Origin: an uncultured delta proteobacterium
Lineage (GTDB): Bacteria; Desulfobacterota; Binatia; UBA9968
DNA length: 64,000 nt
Assembly: GCA_963771465.1 (NCBI GenBank)
Contig: CAVYTU010000014.1
Coordinates: 512,001-576,000, forward strand
Direction: 5' to 3'
Part shown: piece by piece, positions 22,647 through 35,593 of the stretch
Position numbering within the stretch: the first letter of the stretch is position 1
How the letters are laid out: each line of letters opens with the position of its first letter
The notes under the pieces: model-generated
Database searches by the model: none
Told to the model about the DNA's origin: nothing
The model's input: the letters and a program-made list of their open reading frames with translations, nothing else
Made by a program: the position numbers and the translations under genes

Positions 22647-23630
22647 TTAGATCGAAGCTAACAAACCTCGTTGAATCAGGTCTTGTGCCATTCGAACTTT
22701 ATATCCATTATCCTTAAGCGGGTTGGCGCCTTCGAGGGCGATTTCTCCAGCCTTCTTTGCCGTGGCGTCGTCCAAGCGTTTGCTGCGCAAAAATTCTTCC
22801 GCTTTGGCAGCGCGCCAGGGAATGGGCGCCACGCCGCCCATGACGACGCGTGCATCGCGTACCATCCCACCGCCACTTTCGACGATCGTGGCAACAGCAA
22901 CGATGGCGTGATCCCACGCTAGCCGCTCGCGCACCTTGTGATAGAAACCTTTGCTGCCTGCCTTTGGCGTCGGCACGTAGATTTCAGTGACGATCTCGCC
23001 GGGGTTAAGTATATTCTCTCGTTTGAAATCCACCGACGGCAGGACAAAAAATTTTTCTAAAGGAATTGTTCTCTCGCCTTTCGCGCCGGCAATTTTGATC
23101 TGCGCACCGAGTGCGACCAACGCTGGCGCGGTGTCCGACGGATGGGCGATATAGCTCGGCCCGGCGCCGAGAATCGAATGAAACCGGCTATCGCCCGTGA
23201 TCGCGTAGCAGACCTGCCCGCCTTTGCGCAGACAGGTGAAGTTCGACGAGCGAAAATACCAGCAGAACGGCCGCTGGCATATGTTGCCAGCGAGCGTCCC
23301 GGCGTTACGGATTTGCGGCGACGCCGCTTCGCCAGCAGCATCCGAGAGGATCAATAATTTCTCGCGAATTGCCGGATGCTCCTCGATATCCGATAGCTTT
23401 GCCAGCGCGCCGATTCGAAAGCCGCCGCGCTCTTCTTTGATCTGGTCGAGACCGGGAATAGTCTTCAGATTGACGACATAGTCCGGCGTCAAAACGTTGT
23501 CCTTCATCAATTGCAACGCTTCGCTGCCGCCACCAATCACCAAGGCTGGCTTTTTCTCCTGATGGAACTTTTGCAATAGCGAAATCGCTTGGCCGACGCT
23601 TTTGACATCGATATTTTCAAATGACTTCAT
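22647..23630 (-). CDS. Xanthine dehydrogenase family FAD subunit (PaoB/YagS-like, 4Fe-4S insert)
   Basis: ASPQIRN.GT..GN.CQRP.CWYFR...C.RKGG..C, HPSD.APAL, GGVAPIPWR. Confidence 0.9.
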   Translation of the reverse strand: MKSFENIDVKSVGQAISLLQKFHQEKKPALVIGGGSEALQLMKDNVLTPDYVVNLKTIPGLDQIKEERGGFRIGALAKLSDIEEHPAIREKLLILSDAAGEAASPQIRNAGTLAGNICQRPFCWYFRSSNFTCLRKGGQVCYAITGDSRFHSILGAGPSYIAHPSDTAPALVALGAQIKIAGAKGERTIPLEKFFVLPSVDFKRENILNPGEIVTEIYVPTPKAGSKGFYHKVRERLAWDHAIVAVATIVESGGGMVRDARVVMGGVAPIPWRAAKAEEFLRSKRLDDATAKKAGEIALEGANPLKDNGYKVRMAQDLIQRGLLASI

Positions 23631-23643
23631 CGCAGTTCCTCCA

Positions 23644-25865
23644 TCAGACTTGGCGCGCTTGTAAAATCTTGTCCGGCGTTATCGGCAATTCTTTAATCCG
23701 TTTGCCAGTGGCATTGAAGATCGCGTTGGCAATTGTCGCCACCGCCGCCGTGATCGGCGGCTCGCCAACCACTTTGCCACCGAACGGGCCGAACGGATCA
23801 ATATGCTCGATGAAGATCACTTCGACTTCCGGCACCTCGAGATGCGTCGGTACCTTGGCGTCGCGATAGTTGGGATTGATCGGGATACCGGTCACTTTGT
23901 CGATAATTAATTCTTCACTAAATGCCATGCCGATGCCTTGAGTCACGCCACCCTTGATCTGACTTTCCGCCGGCAGCCGATTGATGATCGTCCCCGAGTC
24001 GTGCGCCGCCACATAGCGACTGATCTTCACGTGCCCAGTAATCCCATCGACTTCCACCTCGGCGAAGTGAGCGGAAAAACTCTTCCCTTCCACATCTTTG
24101 AACGCCGGATTGGTCGTTGCTCGGCCGATCATTTCGCCGGCACTTCGGACGACCCTTTCCAGCGGTAGTTTTTGGCTAGGATCGGCTTTGACGAAAACCT
24201 CGCCGTCGCGCAGATCCAACTCTTCCGCCTTCACCTTCATTTGCCCGGCGGCGCGATTGAAAATCTGCCGGCGCACGTCTTCCGCGGCGGCGATCACCGC
24301 CAGTCCGGTGAATGAAGTCGTGCGGCTGCCGGACTCGCCAACCGAGTAAGGCGTCACGTCGGTATCGCCGTTGGTGAGCTGAATCTGAGTGAGCGGAATT
24401 CCGAGAGCTTCAGCGGCGATGATCGCCATCGTCGACTTGGCGCCCGTACCGATATCGGAGACACCGACCAGCACATGCGCCGTGCCGTCGGGATTGAGGC
24501 GAATCGTCGCCGCACCAAGCCCGGACGAAATGGATAACCGCCTAACGCCATGCCGATGCCGTGCTTTTTCGCGCCGCCCATGGCGCCAGGCTTTGTGCCA
24601 TTTTTCGCTGCCAACCGATGCGCTTGGAACCTTCGATGATGCACTGCTCCAAGATAAGTTCGACGTGAATGGAGTCTTGCTTTTATATTTTTGGATCCGG
24701 TTACTGCATGAACATATCGACCGGATTGATATCCATCTCGTGGGCGATCTGATCCAGGAACGACGCGAAGCCGAACACCGATTGCGGATAAGCACGGCGC
24801 CCGATAGTTGGCGCGCCACCACCGTGTTGGTGTGGACCGGCTAGGATGACTTTCTTGAAGTTGGGAATATTGTAGAAATCCGTGCCGCTTAAATTGCCGC
24901 TCTGCTTGCGATACGCGCCCATGTTGGTGACTGCGTCGAGCGTTACCGCGGTAATCGTGCCGTCTTTCTTCACGCCGATCTTGTAGCGTTGCTCCGAGGA
25001 CCAGCGCCCATGCATGCCGATGTAGTCATCTTCACGGGTGAATTCGAGCTTCACCGGTTGCCCGGCAACCTTGGCCAAGACGGCCGCCATGTAGTCGTAG
25101 TCTTGCGCCTGGTTTTTATTGCCGAAGCCGCCGCCCATATATTTGCAGACGATTCGCACTTTGCTCAGCGGCAAGGCGAAGTCTTTGGCGATGTCCGTGC
25201 GCGCGTTGGAGACGCCTTGAGTAGAAGCAAATACGGTGAGCTTGCCAGCGTCCCACTTGGCGACGCTGACGCGCCGTTCCATCTGGGCGTTATTGACATG
25301 CTTGGTAATGTAGGTGTCTTCGAAGACCCGATCGGCTTCATTAAAGCCTTTGTCGACATCGCCCCAGGATTCTTCGATGGGCGCGCTGGAAGAGCCCTTG
25401 CCCACGGAAAGATTGCCGTTGGGCGTTATCTTCGGCGCGTCCGGTTTCAATGCTTCGTTGGCGATCGAGCACATGGGGAATTTTTTCATACTTCACATCG
25501 ATCAGCTTTAGTGCGTCTTCGGCGATATGCCGATCGGTGGCCGCCACCGCCGCCACGGCATCACCAACGTAGCGCACCGGGTTGTTAAAAATAAATCGCT
25601 GGTGCGTCAGGCCGCCGCTCGACCACGGCACCTTGGCGTTCTCGTGGTGCACGATCGCTTTCACCCCCGGCAATTTCTCGGCCTTCGACGTATCGATGCC
25701 GACGATCTTGGCGTGGGGATGCGGGCTACGCAGCACGCGCGCGTAAAGCATACCGGGGAGTTGAATATCGCCGGTGTACTGCGCTTGGCCCGTGACGCGC
25801 TCATAGGCGTCGATGCGCGGGATTCGTTTACCGACAACGGAAAATTCTTTTGGTGCTTGTGCCAT
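23644..25865 (-). pseudogene. Xanthine dehydrogenase family molybdopterin-binding subunit (PaoC-like), split by several frameshifts (possibly sequencing error)
   Basis: Colinear fragments: RIDAYERVTGQAQY, MGGGFGNK, DIGTG...GSRT, QIKGG..QGIG, GGK.VGEP across three or more frames. Confidence 0.8.
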
Positions 25866-25877
25866 GGCTGTCCTCCT

Positions 25878-26495
25878 TTAGCGAGCTTTCGCCGCGACGG
25901 CGAGCACCGCCGCGACCTCGCGGTTATAATTACCACAGCGGCACAGATTGCCGGACAATCCGCGGCGCGCCTGCGTTTCGTTTGGTTTCGGGTTCTTCAT
26001 CAGCAACGCCTTGCCGGACATAATCTGACCCGACGTGCAAAAGCCACACTGCGGTCCGTCATGTTCGATAAACGCTTCCTGCAGCGGATCGAGCTTGTCG
26101 CCTTTCGCCAATCCCTCGATGGTGAGAATCTCTTTGCCTTCCATCCAGACCGCGAGTTGGCTGCACGAATACATATTGCGTCCGTCGATGATCACCGTGC
26201 AGGCGCCGCACTCGCCGCGATCGCAACCGATCTTGGTGCCGGTGAGCCCGACCTGATCGCGCAGCACCTCGGCCAAGGTGTTGCGGTGCTCGACGTCGAC
26301 TTTGTAAAGCTTGCCGTTGACCTTGAGGTTGAGCGCCTTTTTAGCAGGTGCGCTGCCGCTTGTTTCCGGCGTGTAAGCCTCGGCCGGATCGGTTTTAACC
26401 AAGCCGGTGGAAATCGCTGCCGTACCGATGGCGCTACTGCCAAGCCCTTTAAGAAACGAGCGGCGCGAGAACTTCGATCCCTTTTCATCGTTCAT
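25878..26495 (-). CDS. [2Fe-2S] subunit with Tat signal (PaoA-like)
   Basis: SRRSFLK twin-arginine; CDRGECGAC, QCGFC, NLCRC. Confidence 0.92.
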   Translation of the reverse strand: MNDEKGSKFSRRSFLKGLGSSAIGTAAISTGLVKTDPAEAYTPETSGSAPAKKALNLKVNGKLYKVDVEHRNTLAEVLRDQVGLTGTKIGCDRGECGACTVIIDGRNMYSCSQLAVWMEGKEILTIEGLAKGDKLDPLQEAFIEHDGPQCGFCTSGQIMSGKALLMKNPKPNETQARRGLSGNLCRCGNYNREVAAVLAVAAKAR

Positions 26496-26632
26496 AATCG
26501 CTAACCTCCTGTCTCAAGCCCGTTTAAAAGCCGTATCGAACAGCTAATGGTTAATATAGTTGGGGAAGCGGAGTCAACGGGAAAAACGTCGCTTGCCGCG
26601 GCCATTTAATCCCGCTAAGCTTCGGCCCGATC

Positions 26633-27538
26633 ATGACTGACAAGCAACCGATAAGATCGGAAGGCGAGCAGCTCGAAGAATTTCTCGACGCGTTGCAAAG
26701 AGAGCACGCCGTCAAGGAAATCGCCGGCTGGGAGAGTGGCTTTGACAATCTCAGCCGCGCCCTCGACGGCGTCCGTCCAGGACTGCATCTACTCATCGGC
26801 CCGCCTGGCGTCGGCAAGACTTCCTTGGCCAAACAACTGCTCGACCAGGTCGCAATGCGAAACAGTGCTACCGGAATTTTCATCAGCAGCGCCGAATCGA
26901 AACAAGAACTGCGCATTAAAACCCTGGCGCGCCTGAGTGATATGGATAGTCGCGAAATCCGCCGCGGCAGCGCCTACTTGCTCCACTGGTACGGCGTGCC
27001 GCGATTGAGCGGCAATCAGCCAGGTGAAATCTCGCCGAGTTGGGAAAGACTTAAGCGCGCCGCAGAACAAGCGCAAAGTTGGCTCGATTCAATCTATTTG
27101 GTCGACGCCAGCGCAAACCCAACCGTCCCTACAATCGCGGAACAAATCGACGAGATCAAAAACATCAAGAAAAGGTCACAGCTTATAGTGGTGATGGACG
27201 ACTGCCAACGCTTCGGAGAAATAACAGAATCCTTGGACGCGCGCCTGCCGATCGTCGTCGAGCAACTGCAACATTTGGCAATGAACCTGGAATCGCCGCT
27301 ACTCGCAATCTGGCCCGACCTCAGTGGCGAAGCCAAAACCGAGCCGCAAGCTTGGGCGGAAAGAGTCGCCAGCGCCGATGTAATCATGGTATTGGAAAAC
27401 GATTCTGCGCGAACTAGACAACGCACCGAGCCGAATCAGCCCGTCACGTTGCACATCGTCAAAAACCGCGGCGGCGAAAAGGGTAAACTGGTGTTCGATT
27501 TCTATCCAGCGTTCGCGAAGTTCACTGAAGCTGCGTAA
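26633..27538 (+). CDS. Stand-alone DnaB-like helicase C-terminal (RecA-fold) ATPase
   Basis: SGFDNL, GPPGVGKT Walker A, ADVIMVL, IVKNRGG; no DnaB N-terminal domain. Confidence 0.8.
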   Translation: MTDKQPIRSEGEQLEEFLDALQREHAVKEIAGWESGFDNLSRALDGVRPGLHLLIGPPGVGKTSLAKQLLDQVAMRNSATGIFISSAESKQELRIKTLARLSDMDSREIRRGSAYLLHWYGVPRLSGNQPGEISPSWERLKRAAEQAQSWLDSIYLVDASANPTVPTIAEQIDEIKNIKKRSQLIVVMDDCQRFGEITESLDARLPIVVEQLQHLAMNLESPLLAIWPDLSGEAKTEPQAWAERVASADVIMVLENDSARTRQRTEPNQPVTLHIVKNRGGEKGKLVFDFYPAFAKFTEAA

Positions 27539-27587: not shown

Positions 27588-28307
27588 CTACCGCTGCCAC
27601 AGATAGTAGCAAATCGGCACCGGCGCGTTAGCGACAACAAGCGCGCCTTCATATCCGTCTATGGGATCTACTTCGCTAAGCGACCAACCCGGCACGCCGG
27701 CCGTGATACGCACCTGATCGGCGGCAGTCAGCGTAATTTCCACTTCGTCCAACGCTCCGGACAGGCCCGTTCCCTTGGCTTTGAGAAACGCTTCCTTGCT
27801 CGTCCAGCATTTGAAGAAAGCTTGGCGTTGCAGGCTTACCGGTAACCCGCGCATCGCCGCGATTTCTCTCGCGCTGAAAAACCGCTCGGCGACTTCCTGA
27901 CATTCAAAATCTTCCTTGACATACTCGATGTCGATGCCGACTTCGCGTTTACGGCAAACGGCGAGCAACGCCATTTCATGGGAGTGGGAAAGATTAAACT
28001 CAACGTCGCTCGACGCCGGCGCGTGGGGAAGCCTTGGTTTGCCGTTAGCGCCAATGTCGAAGCTCACGCGCGCCGGCTCACTGGGCAAATAGCGGCGCAG
28101 AATATCGTGCAGCGCAATATGAGCGACGAGATAGCGCCGCCGATCCCGCTCAAACTTAAAGCGCGCCAGTCGCTCGCGTTCCTCGGGAGAAAGTAGATCC
28201 AGATCGCGGTCAAAATCGACCGTCGCGTCGTCGAGCCGCACCGCCCATATATGAATGTTATTTTGAAGCGCCGGCAATTCAACCGGTGATCGAGGCCACG
28301 AAGTCAT
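27588..28307 (-). CDS. 4'-phosphopantetheinyl transferase (Sfp/HetI-type)
   Basis: GKP, FNLSHS, VGIDIE, WTSKEAFLKAKG. Confidence 0.92.
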   Translation of the reverse strand: MTSWPRSPVELPALQNNIHIWAVRLDDATVDFDRDLDLLSPEERERLARFKFERDRRRYLVAHIALHDILRRYLPSEPARVSFDIGANGKPRLPHAPASSDVEFNLSHSHEMALLAVCRKREVGIDIEYVKEDFECQEVAERFFSAREIAAMRGLPVSLQRQAFFKCWTSKEAFLKAKGTGLSGALDEVEITLTAADQVRITAGVPGWSLSEVDPIDGYEGALVVANAPVPICYYLWQR

Positions 28308-28399
28308 GGATTAGTCACGAGTCAAAGCTACCACCAACGTTTCAATTTTAACCCATGAAACATCGAAGATTATTTTTTTTACTCTTACGTTCATTGCGC

Positions 28400-28774
28400 C
28401 TAAATCTCACCCACGCTCGGCAATCCGGTGACGACCACCCGTTCGCCGTCGAGCGTGATCTCAAGATCGCACGGCGTGTCAAAGAAAATCATCGTGCGCG
28501 GATGCTCGTACACAGTGCTCTTGTGCGGAATCTCTTCGATGTAGATGTTGAACATGATACCGTCGGGCAGATTGACCGTCTTGGTGTGCATCGTATCGCC
28601 TTCGAAGAACACTTCGATCCAGTTGCGGTTCTCAGTGACTGCGAAAATGATGCCAGCGGCATTCTTGATCGTCGCGACTAGTTCTTCACCGGTTGGATTA
28701 TCCGCCATATTCAGCGAGTTAGATTCCGGAACGCACATACCGGCGGGGACGCCTGACCCCTTCTCGTTCACCAC
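28400..28774 (-). CDS. Hypothetical protein
   Basis: Co-oriented last gene of the operon; alternative ATG 28708. Confidence 0.65.
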   Translation of the reverse strand: MVNEKGSGVPAGMCVPESNSLNMADNPTGEELVATIKNAAGIIFAVTENRNWIEVFFEGDTMHTKTVNLPDGIMFNIYIEEIPHKSTVYEHPRTMIFFDTPCDLEITLDGERVVVTGLPSVGEI

Positions 28775-28796
28775 TCATCCATATTCTCATACTACG

Positions 28797-30326
28797 TCAA
28801 TTCGCCAGCAACGTCGTCGCATCGCGTATCGTCTTTCCCGACGACGTGCGCGGCAATGACTCCCGGATGACGACCTTGTCGGGCACTTTGAAGTTGGCGA
28901 GATTGCCGCGCAGAAACGCCAGCAAATCTTTTTCGACTACCGTGCTCCCCGGCCGCGCCACGATGGCGGCGCCGATCACTTGGCCGCGCTTGGCATCGGG
29001 GATGGCGAAGACGATGGTCTCCTGCACGCCGGGATAAGTGTAAATCAGATTCTCCACCTCGGCGGGATAGACATTCAAACCGCCGGTGATAATCATGTCG
29101 TCGCGCCGGCCGAGATGATAGTAGTAACCGTCCGCTTCGACCTTGCCGACATCGCCGGTGTAGAGCCAGCCGTTGCGAATCCGCTCGGCGGTGGCGTCGA
29201 GCCGGCGAAAGTAACCTTTCATCACGTGCGGCCCGCGCGTGATGATCTCGCCGGCTTCGCCAATGGCAACTTCTTTATCGTTTTCATCGACAATCCTCAC
29301 TTCAACCCGCGGCACGGCGCGGCCGATGCTGCCGATCTTGGCTTCGGCTTTTTCCGGTTCGACCAGAGTTATCATCGGCGAAGTTTCCGTGAGGCCATAG
29401 CCTTGAATCACTTTGATATGCGGCTGCGCCGCTTGAAACGCGCGCAAGAGCGGCATGGGAATACTCGTACCCATCATCGCCGCGATCTTCATGCTGCGGG
29501 TGTCATAGCTGGCCAAATTCTTAACGCCGAGCAAAAGCTGGAACACGATCGGCACGCTCTCGAACACATTGACGCGGTATTTTTGAATGCCTTCGAGCAA
29601 CGTCACCGGATTGATCTGATCGAAGATCACCAGCGTATAGCCTTTTTCGGCCAGCTCGTTACAAACCACCGGGCCGACGATATGCGACATCGGCAAGATG
29701 CAGCCGCGGATCGTCGATGAGTCGGTAATGCGAAATTCTCCCATCAGCGTCGGGTACTGCATCAAATTGACATAACTCAGCACGACACCCTTGGGCTCGC
29801 CGGTGGTGCCCGAAGTGTAGAGAATCAGCGCGTCGTCACCGCCGTTCAATTTCGGTAGCGCTATCACGCCCGCCGGCGCCACCAAGCGCTTTTCAAAGCT
29901 TCGTTCACCGTCACCAGCGGCGACCCAGACGGGAATCGGCGCCAGAGTTTTGAACGCCTCTTGCACGTCGCCATAGAGCTGTTGGTGCACCACGAGTAAT
30001 TTGAGATCGGCGTCTTTGAGCACGCCTTCGAGCTCTTTGCCCTTCAAGCGCGCGTCGAGAATGACGGTCACCGCGCCGATCTTTTGCGTCGCGAAATAGC
30101 TCAGTGGAATGGCGGTCGAATTCGGCAACAGAACGCCGACCCGGTCGCCCTGGCGAATGCCCTCTTGCTGCAAGCGACCGGCGAGCGCATGCACACGCTG
30201 GTTAAGCGCGCCGAACGTTAGCTCTTCTTCCCTGGTGATGATCGCAGTTTTTTGCGGCTGGCGCTCGGCGGTTAGCTGCAAAACTTCCGCCGCGAAAAAG
30301 CCTACTGAATCGGTATCGATTGCCAT
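28797..30326 (-). CDS. Long-chain acyl-CoA synthetase / class I adenylate-forming enzyme
   Basis: YTSGTTGEPKG, QGYGLTE, YTGD, GR.DDMII, RTSSGK. Confidence 0.9.
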   Translation of the reverse strand: MAIDTDSVGFFAAEVLQLTAERQPQKTAIITREEELTFGALNQRVHALAGRLQQEGIRQGDRVGVLLPNSTAIPLSYFATQKIGAVTVILDARLKGKELEGVLKDADLKLLVVHQQLYGDVQEAFKTLAPIPVWVAAGDGERSFEKRLVAPAGVIALPKLNGGDDALILYTSGTTGEPKGVVLSYVNLMQYPTLMGEFRITDSSTIRGCILPMSHIVGPVVCNELAEKGYTLVIFDQINPVTLLEGIQKYRVNVFESVPIVFQLLLGVKNLASYDTRSMKIAAMMGTSIPMPLLRAFQAAQPHIKVIQGYGLTETSPMITLVEPEKAEAKIGSIGRAVPRVEVRIVDENDKEVAIGEAGEIITRGPHVMKGYFRRLDATAERIRNGWLYTGDVGKVEADGYYYHLGRRDDMIITGGLNVYPAEVENLIYTYPGVQETIVFAIPDAKRGQVIGAAIVARPGSTVVEKDLLAFLRGNLANFKVPDKVVIRESLPRTSSGKTIRDATTLLAN

Positions 30327-31297
30327 AGCGCAAATGCCCTCTGAAATGGTTTGTACCAGCGCGATAGTTGCGCCAGCTCGCCGCGCTTGAGTTTTAACTT
30401 GCCCTGTTGCGTCGCTAAGAACGCGTCGATCTTGTTGCTAAACACCGCGTTCCACCACTCCGCTTTGCCGCTGATGAGAAATTCGCCGTCGCTCTGCTGG
30501 CTCAACTCAATGATCTCGCCAGCATGAAATTTCACCGTCCATGCCACGTCGCGTTCTTCGAGATGCAGCGTGAGCGATGTCGTGAGCGCCGTATCGCCGC
30601 CAAACTTGCGAAAATCTTGGTCACCGTTGGCGCTGTCGACCAACGCGTCCATATGTTCTCGTGAGAACAGCGCATAACGCGCGCCGTTCGCAACGGTCGA
30701 CTCTTTCTTGACCGCTACGACCACCGCTGCGTCGCGCTTAGCGGAAACGCCGTCTTTGAAGAATTGGCAATGCACCGCCTCTTCGAGCAAGTCGGTGAGT
30801 AAGAACGCTTCTTGAAATGTCTTGCCGATGGCCACCGTGCCGTGACCTTTGACGATGACCACGGGATTGTACTTGAGTGCTTCGACGACTTTCTCAGGCT
30901 TGGTCACCGTCGGCGTGTCTTGAGGAATGATCGGCACTTCGCCGATCGTATATTTCTCTTCGAAGCTCACCGGCACGAAGCTCTCGTGGGTTAGCGAAAA
31001 GGCCAAAACCATTGGCGGATGTACGTGCACGATCGCCTGCGCCTCGGTGCCGCCATAAACCGCCATATGCATCGGCGTCTCGCTCGACGCCTTCTGATTC
31101 GGCTTCAGCGGTTTTCCGTTGGCGTCAATCCTGACCAAGTCTTTGGTCATGAGAAACCCAAGCGGCGCGTGTTGTCCGGTAATCAGGAAGTTTTCCTTGC
31201 CGACGCGGCAACTCAGATTGCCGCCCCAACCGCTGATCAGCCGCCGGTCAAAGAGCAGCTTACCCCAACGGATAATTTCACTTTCGATCTTGGCCAT
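30302..31297 (-). CDS. Class II aldolase/adducin domain fused to a C-terminal SCP2-like domain
   Basis: GGNLS, SSE..MH, HVHP, GHG Zn ligands; C-term FLISG.AE.W......DAFLA.QQGKLKL.G typical of SCP2. Confidence 0.82.
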   Translation of the reverse strand: MAKIESEIIRWGKLLFDRRLISGWGGNLSCRVGKENFLITGQHAPLGFLMTKDLVRIDANGKPLKPNQKASSETPMHMAVYGGTEAQAIVHVHPPMVLAFSLTHESFVPVSFEEKYTIGEVPIIPQDTPTVTKPEKVVEALKYNPVVIVKGHGTVAIGKTFQEAFLLTDLLEEAVHCQFFKDGVSAKRDAAVVVAVKKESTVANGARYALFSREHMDALVDSANGDQDFRKFGGDTALTTSLTLHLEERDVAWTVKFHAGEIIELSQQSDGEFLISGKAEWWNAVFSNKIDAFLATQQGKLKLKRGELAQLSRWYKPFQRAFALWQSIPIQ

Positions 31298-31299
31298 CG

Positions 31300-32817
31300 T
31301 TAAGACTTCAATAAAGCCCAGGGCACGATTTCGGAATCAACGGGGTAAAGCGAGACTCCGGCAGGACAAATGTTTTTACCCATGAACGTCGACACGTCCT
31401 TGTCCCGAGTTGGAACTAGTTGTGATTCACCCTCAAAGAGTTCGATGCCGCAGCCGTGTAGGTGCGCTAATTGCGCCGCCTGTAGTGAACCGCAGCTAGC
31501 GCGCGGCCCGGCTTCAGTAAGCTCGCCGTAGAATAAGCACAGTTTGGCGATCTCGCCCTGCGCGAACAGCGTTCCGATCATGTTGTCGGAGATCAAAGTG
31601 GTCGGCGCATTTCGTTCCAATAATTCACCCGCGACTAGCTGCGCGCCCCAAAGTTGCGGCCGCATCTCCGGTACGAGGATGCTCTCGGCGTGCTCTGCTT
31701 TGAGGGCGCTGATCAAGAACGCATACTGGTTTTTCGGCGGCACGCCGTGGAGCAAAACGTATTTACTGCCGGAATTGCTCCTCGACTCTTCGCCGCTATT
31801 CTTCCACTGATATTTCTGGCGAAAAGCTTCCGGCGTATAGAGATCGTCAAAGCCGATTAAGTGGGTGATCAACTCCGCCGGCGTCACGTCGAACGCTGGA
31901 TAACGAGCCTTTATTGTAGAATTAGAATCTGCAAGCAATGGCTGCCGCTGAAACGTCAATAACTCATGCGCTGGCCGCTCTTCGATCGGCACGTCACTGC
32001 CGCGTTCGAGCGAGCGCGGATCTTGCACCAGAGCATAGAACGGCACGCCATATTCATGCGCCAGCCGCGCCATCGGATAGGTGCCGACCTTGTTGATGAC
32101 ATCGCCGTTGCGTGCCGAGCGGTCGGCGCCGACAACCACCGCGTTCACTGCGCCGCGCGCCATCACCTGCGCCACGGCGCAATCGGGGATCAGTGAAACG
32201 CTCACCCCCGCTTGCGCTAATTCCCAAGCCGTCAAGCGCGTGCCCTGGAGGTACGGCCGAGTTTCGGTAGCGATGACTGAAAACTCTTTGCCCATCTCCT
32301 GACAATACCGCGCTACCGCGACCAGCTCGCCGCTAACGTTGCAATGTGTCAACACGCGCGCCGGATCGGGCAGGACAGCGGCGGCGCGTTTGGCGCGCGC
32401 GCTACGCCCACGCATGATCTGCGCGCCGAATTCGCGCGTCTGGCGCGCAATAGTTTCGCCAATCGAATCGTTTGCCGGTAGCTTGTCAAAAAATTCCCCG
32501 ACGTAATTGCCTAGACCGCGAAAATCGAAGGTCGGACGAACGTCGCAAAATTGTTGCGTCAGCCGCGCCAGCCGCTCGCGCAGCGGCGCCGGGTCGTTGC
32601 CCTCGTACTGCTGCGCCACCATCGCAGCGCTATAGAGAAATGTCAGCACCTGGCCGAAAGCTCGAGTCTTCATCTCGCGCACGGCGTCGAGCGCCTGGAC
32701 GACTTCCGTTACCTGGATGTACTCGATCTTTTCGGGAACTTGGATTTCGTCAAGAATCTCGAAGCCTGCGCCGCGCCAGTGCACAGGTTCAAACAGCGGG
32801 CTTTCTACTGCGCTCAT
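31300..32817 (-). CDS. mtnA: Divergent methylthioribose-1-phosphate isomerase (MtnA/eIF-2B family) with extra duplicated C-terminal domain
   Basis: LTHCN, ETRPYLQG.RLTAWEL, GADR...NGD..NKVGTY, PAFDVTP; ATG 32817. Confidence 0.8.
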   Translation of the reverse strand: MSAVESPLFEPVHWRGAGFEILDEIQVPEKIEYIQVTEVVQALDAVREMKTRAFGQVLTFLYSAAMVAQQYEGNDPAPLRERLARLTQQFCDVRPTFDFRGLGNYVGEFFDKLPANDSIGETIARQTREFGAQIMRGRSARAKRAAAVLPDPARVLTHCNVSGELVAVARYCQEMGKEFSVIATETRPYLQGTRLTAWELAQAGVSVSLIPDCAVAQVMARGAVNAVVVGADRSARNGDVINKVGTYPMARLAHEYGVPFYALVQDPRSLERGSDVPIEERPAHELLTFQRQPLLADSNSTIKARYPAFDVTPAELITHLIGFDDLYTPEAFRQKYQWKNSGEESRSNSGSKYVLLHGVPPKNQYAFLISALKAEHAESILVPEMRPQLWGAQLVAGELLERNAPTTLISDNMIGTLFAQGEIAKLCLFYGELTEAGPRASCGSLQAAQLAHLHGCGIELFEGESQLVPTRDKDVSTFMGKNICPAGVSLYPVDSEIVPWALLKS

Positions 32818-32842
32818 TTTACCAGCGATCCAATGGAAACGT

Positions 32843-33577
32843 TTAGAGATATTTAAGCGCTTGGCGCGCCACTTCGATGGTTTTTTGCTCGGCTGCGAAA
32901 AACGCCGGATCGCGAAAGCCGAACTTGCCGTACAAGCACTCATCCGACACCGCGAGCACCGCGCCGGCCTTTTTGCCGCGAACTTGGGAAATGGTCAGAA
33001 ACGTCGAGGTCACCATGTCGATGCTTGAGACGTTTTGCTCGTTCAATTGTTGGATCAGCTCGGGCGTCTCTTGGAACAAAGCGTCGGTGGTGAAAATCCA
33101 GCCAAGATGATAACGGACTTTTAGTTCGTCGGCCGCTTGTTTGAGCGCGCTGACGATATCGCCGTGGGCAATAGTGGAAAAACTCTCCGCCACGTAATAG
33201 CGCGACGTGCCGTCGCCGCGCACCGCGCCGGTGACAATGACCAGATCGCCGATCTTGATGTTGTCTTGCAGCGAACCACAGCTGCCAACCCGGATCAGCG
33301 CCTCGACGCCGGCGCCGCAAAGAATCTCCGTGGTAATCGCTGTATCCGGCGCGTAGCGCCCGCCGTTACCGATGCTCACCCGTTTGCCATCGAGCGTACC
33401 GGTATGCATCTCGTAGTCGAGAAAGGTGAAACTCTTTTGCGGACTGTCCAAAAGCTTGAGCAGCAAATCGCTGCGCTCTTTCGGACCCGGGATAAGTGCG
33501 TAGGGACCGAGCGAATTAGGCTTGAGCCCGAGGATGTTGAGCATGCGCTGCGGTGTGAAGTGCGCTTCTTTGACCAT
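32843..33577 (-). CDS. Nucleoside phosphorylase (PNP/UDP-1 family)
   Basis: PG..ER, IRVGSCG, RGDGTSR.Y, TTDALF, DM..S, AVSD. Confidence 0.87.
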   Translation of the reverse strand: MVKEAHFTPQRMLNILGLKPNSLGPYALIPGPKERSDLLLKLLDSPQKSFTFLDYEMHTGTLDGKRVSIGNGGRYAPDTAITTEILCGAGVEALIRVGSCGSLQDNIKIGDLVIVTGAVRGDGTSRYYVAESFSTIAHGDIVSALKQAADELKVRYHLGWIFTTDALFQETPELIQQLNEQNVSSIDMVTSTFLTISQVRGKKAGAVLAVSDECLYGKFGFRDPAFFAAEQKTIEVARQALKYL

Positions 33578-33580
33578 TGA

Positions 33581-34804
33581 CTAAACAGCCTGAAGAGCGA
33601 ATTCCAGCAAATCTTGCACCGGCAGTCCGGCTGGTTTCAAATCGGCAAACGATCGTTGGCAGAGCGCGCTCGAAGTGAGTACTAATTCCGCGCCGGTTTC
33701 GCGCGCTTCGCGCATGCGATCAGCAGCATTCCACTGCGCCAACTCCGGGTCGGCTTCCGGCACGCCGCCACCGCCACCGCAACACCAAGCCCAGCGCCGA
33801 TTGCGCCCCATTTCGACCAGTTGAATACCCGGGATCGCCCGCAAAATAGTCCGCGGCGCCGCGTAAACGCCGCAGCCGCGGCCAAGGTGGCAGGAGTCGT
33901 GATAGGTAACTTTTTTACCGACCGGCTTGGTGAATTTCAATCGCCCCGCTTGCACCAGCTGTTCGACATACTCGACGCCGTGAATGACCTGGATGTCGGC
34001 GCCCACCTCCTTGGCATACTCGCGCCAGATTCTCTGGCAGCTGCCGCATGCGACGATGACGCGTTCAATGCCGGCATTCTTAAGGGTCGCCAGATTGTCG
34101 TCCTTTAGCCGCTCATACTCGCGGCGAAAGCCGAGATCGAAAGCATAAAGCCCGCAACATTTTTCATCGTCGCCAAGAATTGCAAAATCCTCGCCTGCCC
34201 GTTGCAGCAACTTCGCCAGTGCGATGACGCCGCCACGGCCGCTATCGCGGTCCGCCGAACAGCCGGCAAAGAGCAACGTCGGGGCCTTCGACTCAGCGAC
34301 GTTCTTCACTCCCAAACCATTGGCCCACGCGCCACGCTCAATCTTTGGCTGCGCCCAAGGATTGTCATGCTGCTGAAGTCCAGCGTAGAGCGGTTGATGC
34401 GCTGGAATCGGTCCATCTTTCTCGGTGATCTCCTCGCGCATGGCAACGGTTATATCCCAAGGACCGTAACCGTCGCCGCGCACGCCGCATAACTCCTGAC
34501 ACATGAGACAGCTGGTGCAAGCGTACATTACTTCTTTTAGTTCCGGCGTGATCGCATCGAGACCGTGAAATACTCGCTGTGCCATCAGCCAACGCGACTT
34601 AGGCGTGTGGCGTTGAAATTTATAGAATTCGTAGGGCGGACATTTCTCTTTTGGCCCAGGAACGTCTTCCATCGGATTGGCTGGTCCGTGGCCATAGCAA
34701 GAGCCGCACAAAACGCAACCGCTGCTGCGCTCGTCAAGTCCTTTGGCGTAAAGCCACTGTTTGACTCTTTCGAGCCCGATGGGTTTTTTGCTCTCGTTTT
34801 TCAC
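33581..34804 (-). CDS. Fe-S oxidoreductase (GlpC/HdrD/GlcF-like, 2x4Fe-4S plus CCG domains)
   Basis: CVLCGSC...CP, CTSCLMCQELC, CCG, YHDSCHLGR, CCGGGGG. Confidence 0.88.
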   Translation of the reverse strand: MKNESKKPIGLERVKQWLYAKGLDERSSGCVLCGSCYGHGPANPMEDVPGPKEKCPPYEFYKFQRHTPKSRWLMAQRVFHGLDAITPELKEVMYACTSCLMCQELCGVRGDGYGPWDITVAMREEITEKDGPIPAHQPLYAGLQQHDNPWAQPKIERGAWANGLGVKNVAESKAPTLLFAGCSADRDSGRGGVIALAKLLQRAGEDFAILGDDEKCCGLYAFDLGFRREYERLKDDNLATLKNAGIERVIVACGSCQRIWREYAKEVGADIQVIHGVEYVEQLVQAGRLKFTKPVGKKVTYHDSCHLGRGCGVYAAPRTILRAIPGIQLVEMGRNRRWAWCCGGGGGVPEADPELAQWNAADRMREARETGAELVLTSSALCQRSFADLKPAGLPVQDLLEFALQAV

Positions 34805-34823
34805 TGGAATACGCCCGCGCTGA

Positions 34824-34872
34824 AAATAGTTTAAATGTTAACCATTTATAACCCGCCTATATCCGCTGTCAA
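34824..34872 (-). promoter_or_regulatory. Sigma70 promoter with overlapping palindromic (MarR-type) operator
   Basis: Minus strand TTGACA (34867-72)-N16-TATAAA (34845-50); imperfect palindrome AAATAGTTTAAATGTTAACCATTT at 34824-47. Confidence 0.55.
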
Positions 34873-34981
34873 TCAAGTGAGACCTTCGGCTGGAGCAAGT
34901 AGCCGCGAATGCTCGTCAGCAAGCCGCTGCGATCATCTGGAATTGGCAATCTGAAATCGGCGTTATCTTGTGGCCGCGGAG

Positions 34982-35434
34982 CTAATTCGTGGTGGTCGTG
35001 AGATTCAACTTGCGGAGAATTGCCGAGAGCTCTTTCTGTTCGGTTTTGCTCAACCCGGTGAAAATCTGCCCGCAGCTCTTTTCGAATTCGGGAATCGTAC
35101 TCTTATAGAGTTTCGCGCCCCTGTCAGTCAAAACCACGTGCACGACGCGCCGGTCATTGTCGTCGCGCTTGCGCACCACCAGTTTTTTTTCTTCCAGCCG
35201 ATCGACGATGCCGGTTAAGTTGCTCACCGTGACCATCATCTTGGCGCCGATTTCGCCAAACGGCAGGCGGCCGGCATAGCCGATCGTCGCCAACACGTAA
35301 AATTGCGGCGGTGTGAGGGCTAATTTTGCCAGATCGTCTTCGAGTTTTTTATGGGATTGTAAGCTGAAGCGAAGAAAACGAATCCACAGACTGGTTGTAT
35401 AGGTGGTAAAAAAAGGACGTTTGAACCCTGCCAC
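34982..35434 (-). CDS. MarR family transcriptional regulator
   Basis: LTPPQFYVL, VDRLE.K.LV.R..D..DRR...V.LT.RG; start uncertain (GTG 35434). Confidence 0.9.
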   Translation of the reverse strand: MAGFKRPFFTTYTTSLWIRFLRFSLQSHKKLEDDLAKLALTPPQFYVLATIGYAGRLPFGEIGAKMMVTVSNLTGIVDRLEEKKLVVRKRDDNDRRVVHVVLTDRGAKLYKSTIPEFEKSCGQIFTGLSKTEQKELSAILRKLNLTTTTN

Positions 35435-35593
35435 ACGTGTGACTCTAAACGCAGCGAGGTGAAAATGCAACTTCGCGGCGCTCAATCAAAGTCACGGTGA
35501 CGACGATTGAACGGTCGGTTGCATCCTCATGTTCGATCGTCGTATTGAATACGCAGACGAGCCAGTGGATTTCCTTTAAGAACTGGAAATATA

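Follow-up and report, generated by a model that had tools for sequence, protein, structure and literature searches.

The bacterial systems closest to the locus described here are the dihydroxyacetone phosphate (DHAP) shunt of extraintestinal Escherichia coli and the 5-deoxyribose disposal of Bacillus thuringiensis (relevant parts of PMC6079011, PMC10986504, and PMC12632272). Our subject is an operon of eight genes, all on the minus strand at positions 27588-35485 of a 64,000-nucleotide stretch of DNA (the window; positions 512,001 to 576,000 of contig CAVYTU010000014.1, assembly GCA_963771465.1) from an uncultured member of the Binatia. We confirmed that this is a real, conserved operon by the identities of its genes, the retained catalytic residues, the recurrence of its core as a module across lineages, and the co-occurrence of that core with a radical S-adenosylmethionine (SAM) gene. 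On balance, we favor the reading that it is the Binatia version of a widespread nucleoside-trimming cassette, which would turn a modified adenosine-type nucleoside into a sugar phosphate and a probably hydrophobic aldehyde, the latter ending as an activated acid. In Rhodospirillum rubrum, the DHAP shunt reportedly runs through MtnP, or MtnN plus MtnK, followed by MtnA and Ald2, and the B. thuringiensis enzymes are DrdK, DrdI, and DrdA. The operon is predicted to catalyze the same reactions with the same folds, i.e., release of a pentose-1-phosphate, isomerization by an MtnA-family protein, and cleavage by a class II aldolase to DHAP and an aldehyde. In contrast to the shunt, its phosphorylase is of the DeoD/Udp class and not an MTAP, its isomerase is a second, divergent paralog beside the canonical MtnA and carries a degenerate half-domain, and its aldolase bears an SCP2 domain; moreover, a ligase is a fixed member, as is an aldehyde dehydrogenase (ALDH) outside the Binatia, and the cassette co-occurs with one family of B12-binding radical SAM enzymes. 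It appears to be an undescribed variant of the DHAP shunt: no description of the cassette or of the aldolase-SCP2 fusion was found by a full-text literature search, supplements being outside its scope, or in sections 9, 14, 18, and 19 of PMC13459092, a 2026 review of lipid-modifying radical SAM enzymes.

Three further pathways bear on the comparison. In the hopanoid route, the radical SAM enzyme HpnH adenosylates diploptene and HpnG, a PNP-family enzyme, cleaves off the adenine (PMC13459092, section 14). The likeness lies in a radical SAM enzyme and a PNP_UDP_1 protein acting on a lipid-linked adenosine, and in the MMPL-type genes found near the cassette in some lineages. However, no shc, and no hpnH above its cut-off, was found in the six cassette genomes searched, the radical SAM partner is B12-binding and BchE/HpnJ-like rather than HpnH-like, and the cassette would cut the ribose down to two carbons, whereas hopanoids keep the polyol side chain. 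The futalosine pathway comprises adenosylation by MqnE, removal of the base by MqnB, and the subsequent steps of MqnC and MqnD. It provides a precedent for the 5'-deoxyadenosyl group as a carbon donor of which only C4' and C5' of the ribose remain in the product, but the trimming enzymes of the cassette belong to different families and this genome lacks MqnE and MqnC. Aminofutalosine was considered as a substrate and rejected for this genome, where the only MqnE/MqnC-family gene is CofH (457 bits) and the VitK2_biosynth match was marginal (28 bits). Finally, the fluorometabolites of Streptomyces cattleya are made by way of 5'-fluoro-5'-deoxyadenosine phosphorylase, an isomerase, an aldolase, and fluoroacetaldehyde dehydrogenase. 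That pathway has in common with the cassette the PNP, the MtnA-type isomerase, the class II aldolase, and the ALDH, which together convert a SAM-derived 5'-modified adenosine into an acid, but it has no SCP2 domain, ligase, or radical SAM partner.

Genes were identified by searching the proteins of the window with Pfam and NCBIfam models. An earlier note on this DNA had proposed a core of phosphorylase, MtnA-type isomerase, and class II aldolase, and this core proved real, with its residues kept and its conservation extending across lineages. The phosphorylase (32843-33577) is a PNP_UDP_1 protein (115 bits, E 5e-33) whose best NCBIfam model was TIGR01718 (135 bits, cut-off 280), with a DeoD-type model at 98 bits (cut-off 230); TIGR01694, the MTAP family, was absent among its NCBIfam matches at E 0.001 or better. 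The best PDB matches were uridine phosphorylases, the S. solfataricus MTAP 1jds, and DeoD. The motifs PGPKER, R.GSCG, (I/V)DMV(T/S)S, and AVSD(E/N) are kept in 38 Binatia-type and 50 Omnitrophota phosphorylases, and the AVSD motif presumably resembles that of DeoD. It is a nucleoside phosphorylase of the hexameric class (DeoD/Udp-type), and we propose that it catalyzes the first step, releasing the base and a pentose-1-phosphate.

The isomerase gene (31300-32817) encodes an IF-2B/MtnA-family protein that scored 228.7 bits with TIGR00512, under the 279-bit cut-off of the MtnA equivalog. Its N-terminal part (31837-32817) is a divergent MtnA-family isomerase domain, in which the Cys of THCN and the Asp of GADR align with the sequence of 1t5o, seven residues being missing just after the Cys. 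The last ~175 residues (31300-31836; Pfam IF-2B, E 4e-6 on that part alone) duplicate, within the protein itself, the Rossmann half of its fold, with 28% identity to the N-terminal part over 79 residues by BLASTP (E 4e-7). In this half-domain, Gly replaces the catalytic Asp of GADR, and the half-domain is predicted to be non-catalytic; in Omnitrophota and other genomes, it is a separate open reading frame (ORF) of 145-176 aa. Another IF-2B-family domain was observed a few kb from the cassette of one genome (L147:17322-19433 in G039), at the C-terminus of a 703-aa protein with an HD-CE domain.

The aldolase gene (30302-31297) encodes a class II aldolase with ~140 extra C-terminal residues. The zinc aldolase domain (30755-31297; Aldolase_II, 134 bits) keeps His91, His93, His152, Glu73, and Ser71-Ser72 invariant in 24 relatives, and in a broader set of 24 fusions (26-42% identity) the three His and the Glu likewise do not vary; we take the invariant residues to be the zinc and phosphate ligands of FucA. 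A Foldseek search with the AlphaFold2 (AF2) model returned the fuculose-1-phosphate aldolases FucA 2fk5 and 1fua as the best matches, with the 5-deoxyribose aldolase DrdA (6btd) at rank 36, and no curated Ald2 or DrdA model of NCBIfam was matched above its cut-off, the best being PRK08660 'aldolase' (140 bits, cut-off 203). This domain is proposed to cleave its substrate to DHAP and an aldehyde. The extra C-terminal domain (30302-30685), which the earlier note had taken for SCP2, scored 19.8 bits with Pfam SCP2 when the window protein was searched alone, i.e., under the 21.3-bit gathering score. The assignment held nonetheless, since a profile of the domain from 24 relatives matched the Thermus thermophilus SCP2 structures 2cx7 and 1wfr (E 3e-5, positions 4-112 of 127), and fusions of other lineages exceeded the Pfam threshold (23.5-38.8 bits). 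The SCP2 fold, a lipid-carrier fold, is thus confirmed, and lipid binding is predicted. The AF2 model (mean pLDDT 84) has two well-predicted domains, that of SCP2 at pLDDT 82-95, joined by a disordered linker of variable sequence (residues 185-204, pLDDT <50).

More than 120 relatives share at least 73% identity with the fusion; their organism names include Candidatus Binatia/Binatus, Deltaproteobacteria, and a few others. A search of 1.8 billion cluster representatives gave ~25 clusters of full-length fusions at 25-46% identity, and the ESM Atlas search gave matches solely from the protein's own family. This genome (G000, 6.9 Mb) has 17 class II aldolase-family matches in total. One paralogous trio of aldolase, ligase, and ALDH, 27 kb past the window (C14:603-607 kb), was set aside as unrelated; its members belong to the benzoate-CoA-ligase and PhtC-like decarboxylase families. 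A variant locus without phosphorylase and isomerase was also observed (L149, G035:C7:57000-76900), where the fusion and a ligase stand with genes for a LolA-like protein, DUF1302, a Zn-alcohol dehydrogenase, a DeoC/LacD-family aldolase, a phosphoglucomutase-family mutase, and a lipid A-type acyltransferase.

The ligase (28797-30326) is an ANL-family AMP-binding protein (AMP-binding, 270 bits) whose best NCBIfam model was PRK06187 (413 bits, cut-off 476) and whose best PDB matches were the feruloyl/fatty-acyl-CoA synthetase 8wev/8weu, FadD13, and FadD5. It is proposed to be an acyl/aryl-CoA (or carrier-protein) ligase that would activate an acid. The claim that it belongs to the same unit was borne out, as it accompanies the three enzymes in three lineages with differing gene orders. 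All eight genes were found, co-oriented, where the earlier note had placed them. The packing is tight, as had been said, from the CCG iron-sulfur protein gene through the phosphorylase, isomerase, and aldolase-SCP2 to the ligase, with distances from a 25-base overlap up to gaps of no more than ~25 bases: 3 nt between the CCG and phosphorylase genes, ~25 nt between phosphorylase and isomerase if translation of the latter begins at 32817, 2 nt between isomerase and aldolase, and a 25-nt overlap of aldolase and ligase. The small ORF follows the ligase after at least 22 nt, and the gaps are wider at marR (177 nt to the CCG gene) and at the phosphopantetheinyl transferase (PPTase) gene (92 nt from the small ORF).

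The core was also found beyond the Binatia, in shuffled orders, namely in Omnitrophota and, within the window's own GTDB phylum, in small genomes of low GC content; it consists of the ligase, the DeoD/Udp-class phosphorylase, the divergent MtnA paralog, the IF-2B half-domain, and aldolase-SCP2. The Omnitrophota set comprised 80 metagenome loci of one fusion clade, retrieved by a contig scan with an alignment of six closer sequences, and all seven organism names on proteins of that clade were Omnitrophota or Omnitrophica. In these loci, at ~35-45% identity, the ligase sits upstream instead, and the order is PadR, ligase, PNP, MtnA (~320 aa), IF-2B half-domain ORF, aldolase-SCP2, ALDH, B12-binding radical SAM, small ORFs, a PanE-like reductase, and two ketosynthases. 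Among the 43 loci of at least 9 kb, MtnA, the half-domain ORF, and the ALDH after the aldolase were each present in 42, the ligase and PNP each in 40, the radical SAM gene in 34, and each ketosynthase in 31. Eight other genomes of the window's phylum carry fusions at 31-38% identity and show three further gene orders. In the first, MMPL, radical SAM, PNP, MtnA, half-domain, and aldolase-SCP2 are followed by ALDH, LolA-like, DUF1302, and one to three ligases. The second runs ligase, MMPL, MtnA, half-domain, radical SAM, PNP, aldolase-SCP2, LolA-like, and DUF1302. The third starts with a ketosynthase, a cyclase, a START-like protein, MFS, a short-chain dehydrogenase/reductase (SDR), radical SAM, an amidohydrolase, and PNP, and continues directly with an ACPS-type PPTase, MtnA, half-domain, aldolase-SCP2, and ALDH. 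Because the core is kept together across at least four gene orders in unrelated lineages, we conclude that ligase, PNP, MtnA, half-domain, and aldolase-SCP2 form one unit.

The shuffled neighborhoods also speak to two suggestions of the earlier note. Oxidation of the aldehyde to an acid gained support from the ALDH, which follows the aldolase in three further genomes besides the Omnitrophota and is present in most contexts outside the Binatia. A lipophilic substrate is likewise supported by the SCP2 domain together with the MMPL, LolA-like, DUF1302, ketosynthase, and START-like neighbors found elsewhere; the SCP2 domain, the fatty-acyl-type ligases, and the lipid-transport and ketosynthase neighbors argue for a hydrophobic 5' substituent. 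The chain of phosphorolysis, isomerization, aldol cleavage, oxidation, and activation in the earlier note is thus supported.

The gene set of the earlier note was right in its core but missed a partner outside the window, a B12-binding radical SAM protein. Outside the Binatia, a gene of this family is present in all contexts that have PNP and MtnA too. This genome encodes a full-length homolog (39.6% identity; 363 bits versus 92 for the next-best match) with the Pfam domains B12-binding and Radical_SAM, which by score is neither BchE (164 bits, cut-off 481) nor HpnJ (123-130 bits, cut-off 578). Co-occurrence was counted in a phylum sample of 151 genomes and a class sample of 81, 227 in union, with 360 bits or more defining a radical SAM homolog. 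In the phylum sample, nine genomes had aldolase-SCP2, ten the radical SAM gene, and eight both; the figures for the class sample were seven, six, and six. In the union, both genes were present in 13 genomes, the fusion alone in two, the radical SAM gene alone in two, and neither in 210, and six families carry both. The fusion-only genomes were G035, which lacks the module's PNP, MtnA, and radical SAM, and G157 (96% complete), and the two with the radical SAM gene alone are fragmented (430-450 contigs, 90-93% complete). Among the eight other genomes of the phylum with the fusion, seven have the radical SAM gene, and it adjoins or lies inside the module in all five with sufficient surrounding sequence. 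The tie of the cassette to one radical SAM family argues for this enzyme as the source of the nucleoside.

In this genome, the radical SAM gene heads an operon of five genes (C14:748865-754700; locus L143:9866-15681), in the order radical SAM, FabG-like SDR, a flavoprotein of the vanillyl-alcohol oxidase (VAO)/p-cresol-methylhydroxylase type, a heme-oxygenase-like protein, possibly di-iron, and an O-methyltransferase. The first four genes are present in all four other genomes of the window's GTDB family (f1), and the methyltransferase is present in the two whose contig reaches it. The content of this operon suggests chemistry on a phenolic or lipid substrate.

From gene content, we infer the following reactions, their direction, and the nature of the substrate. 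First, the phosphorylase would strip the purine base from a 5'-substituted 5'-deoxy-nucleoside, giving a 5-substituted ribose-1-phosphate, which the dedicated, divergent MtnA paralog with its IF-2B half-domain would isomerize to the ribulose-1-phosphate. The zinc aldolase would then yield DHAP and an aldehyde that still carries the 5' substituent along with the ribose carbons C4' and C5', while the fused SCP2 domain would hold that substituent, if hydrophobic. The aldehyde would be oxidized to an acid by an ALDH encoded in cis in other lineages and by an enzyme acting in trans in the Binatia, and the ANL ligase would turn the acid into a CoA or carrier-protein thioester, the whole operon being under the control of the MarR-family protein. 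The most likely source of the nucleoside would be the partner B12 radical SAM enzyme, either as an adenosylated, probably lipophilic product or as the by-product 5'-deoxyadenosine.

A more specific version, which we regard as possible and put forward tentatively, is that the partner joins the 5'-deoxyadenosyl group to a hydrophobic compound, for example a polyketide or a lipid that is phenolic or bears an alkene, and that the cassette trims the adduct to C4'-C5'. Overall, the compound would gain two carbons as a carboxymethyl-type extension and emerge as an acyl thioester, while DHAP and the base are regained. If true, hopanoids and futalosine would be joined by a third case in which the adenosyl group of SAM supplies carbon to a product. 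This case would be a general one, serving the assembly of lipids or polyketides, or the anaerobic activation of inert hydrocarbons, across several uncultured phyla. If the main reading is right, the DHAP shunt, familiar as a means of waste disposal, would have become the final part of a radical SAM pathway that makes or degrades a hydrophobic molecule. That reading would also explain the conserved aldolase-SCP2 fusion and assign a role to a B12 radical SAM family loosely labeled BchE-like, and it may point to a new means of extending an unactivated carbon by two carbons. The carriers include Binatia and Omnitrophota, some of them with small genomes, one of which is closed, and seven genes define the unit (radical SAM, PNP, MtnA, half-domain, aldolase-SCP2, ALDH, and ligase).

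Several observations weigh against the trimming cassette and its coupling to the radical SAM enzyme. B12-binding radical SAM enzymes are not known to adenosylate their substrates. The known adenosylating radical SAM enzymes HpnH and MqnE are described elsewhere (PMC13459092, section 14). In this genome, the radical SAM gene (C14:748865-750376) lies 205 kb from the operon, within its own conserved operon, and neither it nor an ALDH gene was found within ~8 kb of the operon in any of 52 Binatia-type loci. The related genomes are not independent, and the co-occurrence amounts to about six independent observations, one per family. As to the enzymes, the sequence of the ligase does not reveal its specificity, and an SCP2 domain may have a structural role. 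In the phosphorylase, a Val aligns with the second Glu in the MET motif of the uridine phosphorylase 4lnh, a Glu that binds ribose in DeoD/Udp enzymes, and an equivalent of the inter-subunit phosphate Arg of DeoD was not seen; the phosphorylase might therefore bind the sugar differently or hydrolyze its substrate instead. Finally, the MBL-fold and D-Ala-D-Ala carboxypeptidase genes that flank the operon are equally syntenic in Binatia-type loci, and synteny within this lineage is thus weak evidence when taken alone.

Among the alternatives, the salvage of a by-product deserves the most attention, and we consider it rather unlikely. The operon would be a DHAP shunt for 5'-deoxyadenosine or 5'-methylthioadenosine (MTA), in which (methylthio)acetaldehyde is oxidized to acetate or methylthioacetate and then converted to the CoA thioester, and its position next to a B12 radical SAM enzyme of high flux would serve to clear the inhibitory by-product of that enzyme. 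The enzyme trio is indeed that of the DHAP shunt (relevant parts of PMC6079011 and PMC10986504), and the radical SAM neighbor necessarily makes 5'-deoxyadenosine. In addition, despite canonical MtnP and MtnA, no MtnB above the cut-off was found in this genome, where the acireductone dioxygenase (ARD) match was marginal and no other enzyme is obvious for the product of the two; the best match to the MtnB model genome-wide was the operon aldolase (63.6 bits), which could therefore also serve the canonical MtnP/MtnA branch. However, a canonical MTAP (322 bits) and MtnA (447 bits) are encoded outside the operon in this genome. The search was extended to 12 further cassette-type genomes, of which 11 have the full fusion and one (G193) matches in the aldolase part only; canonical MtnA was above the cut-off in every case (426-453 bits), the divergent copy being also present in 11 of the 12 (153-222 bits). 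As canonical MtnA is kept in all cassette genomes searched, plain salvage of MTA or 5'-deoxyadenosine is the less likely reading. The picture for MTAP was mixed, with five of the 12 above the cut-off; it was absent at that threshold in all four f43 genomes searched, a point in favor of salvage. For comparison, MTAP is given as present in 70-99% of the main Omnitrophota class in the part of 10.64898/2026.06.07.730766 that treats it. Moreover, radical SAM candidates were present in all sampled genomes, yet the cassette follows one B12 family, and salvage leaves the SCP2 domain, the one to three fatty-acyl-type ligases, and the MMPL, LolA-like, and DUF1302 proteins without a role for two-carbon products.

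A general catabolism of nucleoside ribose is improbable. It would convert ribose-1-phosphate to ribulose-1-phosphate and then to DHAP and glycolaldehyde, which would be oxidized, the GlcF-like CCG protein taking part in glycolate oxidation; this would amount to a shortened form of the haloarchaeal non-carboxylating pentose bisphosphate route. It fits a phosphorylase of the general DeoD/Udp class rather than the MTAP class, and an isomerase without the post-Cys loop of the canonical 1t5o, a loop that ribose-1,5-bisphosphate isomerases also lack. A weak match to a ribulose-1-phosphate aldolase model (64 bits, cut-off 300) and the match of the CCG protein to GlcF (E 1e-8) point the same way. However, the operon has no GlcD/GlcE partner, the other lineages have no CCG protein, and the co-occurrence with the radical SAM gene, the SCP2 domain, the ligase, and the lipid-transport neighbors would be left unexplained.

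It is very improbable that the genes serve no single pathway, i.e., that they are inherited neighbors with two or three unrelated functions in a stable gene order. The conservation of synteny that the earlier note proposed as a check was found: marR, CCG, PNP, MtnA, aldolase, and ligase stand in the same order in 37 of the 52 related genome loci (60-87% identity), the remaining 15 being shorter pieces that mostly end at a contig edge, and this arrangement exceeds chance. The equally syntenic flanks mentioned above would fit a merely inherited order, as would the variability of the PPTase and the small ORF and a promoter and terminator scan at the level of chance (3 and 10 sites versus 3.7 and 11.4 expected), but the core five stay together in unrelated lineages and at least four gene orders, and successive genes overlap or are separated by no more than 25 nt between stop and start codon. 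As for adenosylhopane, the speculative candidate of the earlier note, processing of this hopanoid side chain parallels the HpnH/HpnG logic (PMC13459092, section 14) and draws on the distant match of the partner to HpnJ and on the MMPL transporter adjoining the cassette in some lineages, but it is scarcely credible and already contradicted for cell-made hopanoids, as a squalene-hopene cyclase model had no match in this genome (99.4% complete) and five other fusion carriers (93-100% complete), HpnH was not found above its 225-bit cut-off in any of these six (best scores 48-71 bits), and the phosphorylase is no HpnG equivalog (23.8 bits, cut-off 187). The hopanoid transporter HpnN, in turn, is of the MMPL type.

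The trimming cassette is accompanied in the Binatia-type loci by four additions to the core: the CCG protein, the MarR-family regulator, the small ORF, and the Sfp-type PPTase. The CCG protein (33581-34804) has a 4Fe-4S dicluster, two CCG stretches (Pfam CCG, 98.7 bits, E 2e-28), and Fer4_8, and is a member of the HdrD/GlpC/TfrB-like superfamily. It scored under every equivalog cut-off (TfrB 138/385 bits, GlpC 58/278, and GlcF 34/333), and its best PDB sequence match was 9ojn, an 'iron-sulfur-binding reductase' (E 4e-27). The earlier note had suggested that it oxidizes the aldehyde. This idea found no backing: homologs were absent from 13 contexts of other lineages and from a tblastn screen of the 80 Omnitrophota loci, and occurred only beside f1 (Binatia-type) operons; moreover, we know of no CCG enzyme that oxidizes an aldehyde. 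A split YdiJ/GlcDF-type link between the CCG protein and the FAD_binding_4 protein near the radical SAM gene was also considered and was not supported by the PDB matches, those of the latter being best to p-cresol methylhydroxylase and vanillyl-alcohol oxidase types, with 9ojn not among its 43 matches.

The MarR-family protein (34982-35485; Pfam MarR, E 1.6e-16) is probably the repressor of the operon. The earlier call of this gene was correct except for its end at 35434, which is an internal GTG, as the gene reaches 35485; the likely start is downstream of the TTG of the longest ORF. In 30 of the 43 Omnitrophota loci, a PadR-family gene stands in its place. Regulators of the PadR and MarR families often sense phenolic or lipophilic ligands, and their presence thus fits a hydrophobic substituent. 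The small ORF (28400-28774, likely start 28708) matches no Pfam or NCBIfam family and has homologs in ~31 of the 52 loci, down to 39% identity, being specific to Binatia-type versions. Its AF2 model (pLDDT 86) is all-beta with seven strands, and a fold search found no PDB match at E 0.001 or better, with a best TM-score of ~0.3. The PPTase (27588-28307) is of the Sfp/HetI type, scoring 194 bits with the HetI model (cut-off 370) and passing the thresholds of both the ACPS and AASDHPPT_N domains of Pfam. It had been counted as an operon member but is not a fixed one, being present in 17 of the 52 Binatia-type loci; an unrelated ACPS-type PPTase lies inside the module of one other lineage (L148).

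Contigs of a soil metatranscriptome library (X16) covered 27 of 30 operon bins, leaving three uncovered, and 18 of the 26 contigs were at least 99% alike. Pieces from this library bridge the MtnA/aldolase (31176-31760) and PNP/CCG (33333-33831) junctions, and a contig from a second RNA study bridges the aldolase/ligase overlap (30240-30376). These data hint that the operon is expressed, although such contigs cannot show a single transcript and may reflect DNA carry-over. Three small-share RNA runs (X17-X19) mostly matched a conserved 35-nt ligase motif (29788-29822) and were not used as evidence. Between marR and the divergent MBL-fold gene lies an imperfect 17-nt inverted repeat (35479-35513, 76% complementary, 1-nt spacer), a candidate operator; a crude search of 40 upstream regions, with a pattern that missed even the window's own copy, gave no conserved palindrome.

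The surroundings of the operon include the housekeeping genes holA, D-Ala-D-Ala carboxypeptidase, thiG/thiE, ribBA, and an mltG-like gene. The minus strand of the window encodes, at 22647-25489, the subunits of a molybdopterin-dependent dehydrogenase of xanthine/aldehyde oxidoreductase type, which could oxidize an aldehyde. Its large subunit appears split into two overlapping ORFs in different frames (MoCoBD_1, 24701-25489; MoCoBD_2, 23644-24822), which may be due to a frameshift or an assembly error. On the plus strand at 25527-27538, a 325-aa ORF without family precedes a P-loop ATPase (DnaB_C/KaiC-like, 301 aa). Many related loci have this pair as well, downstream of the operon and oriented opposite to it.

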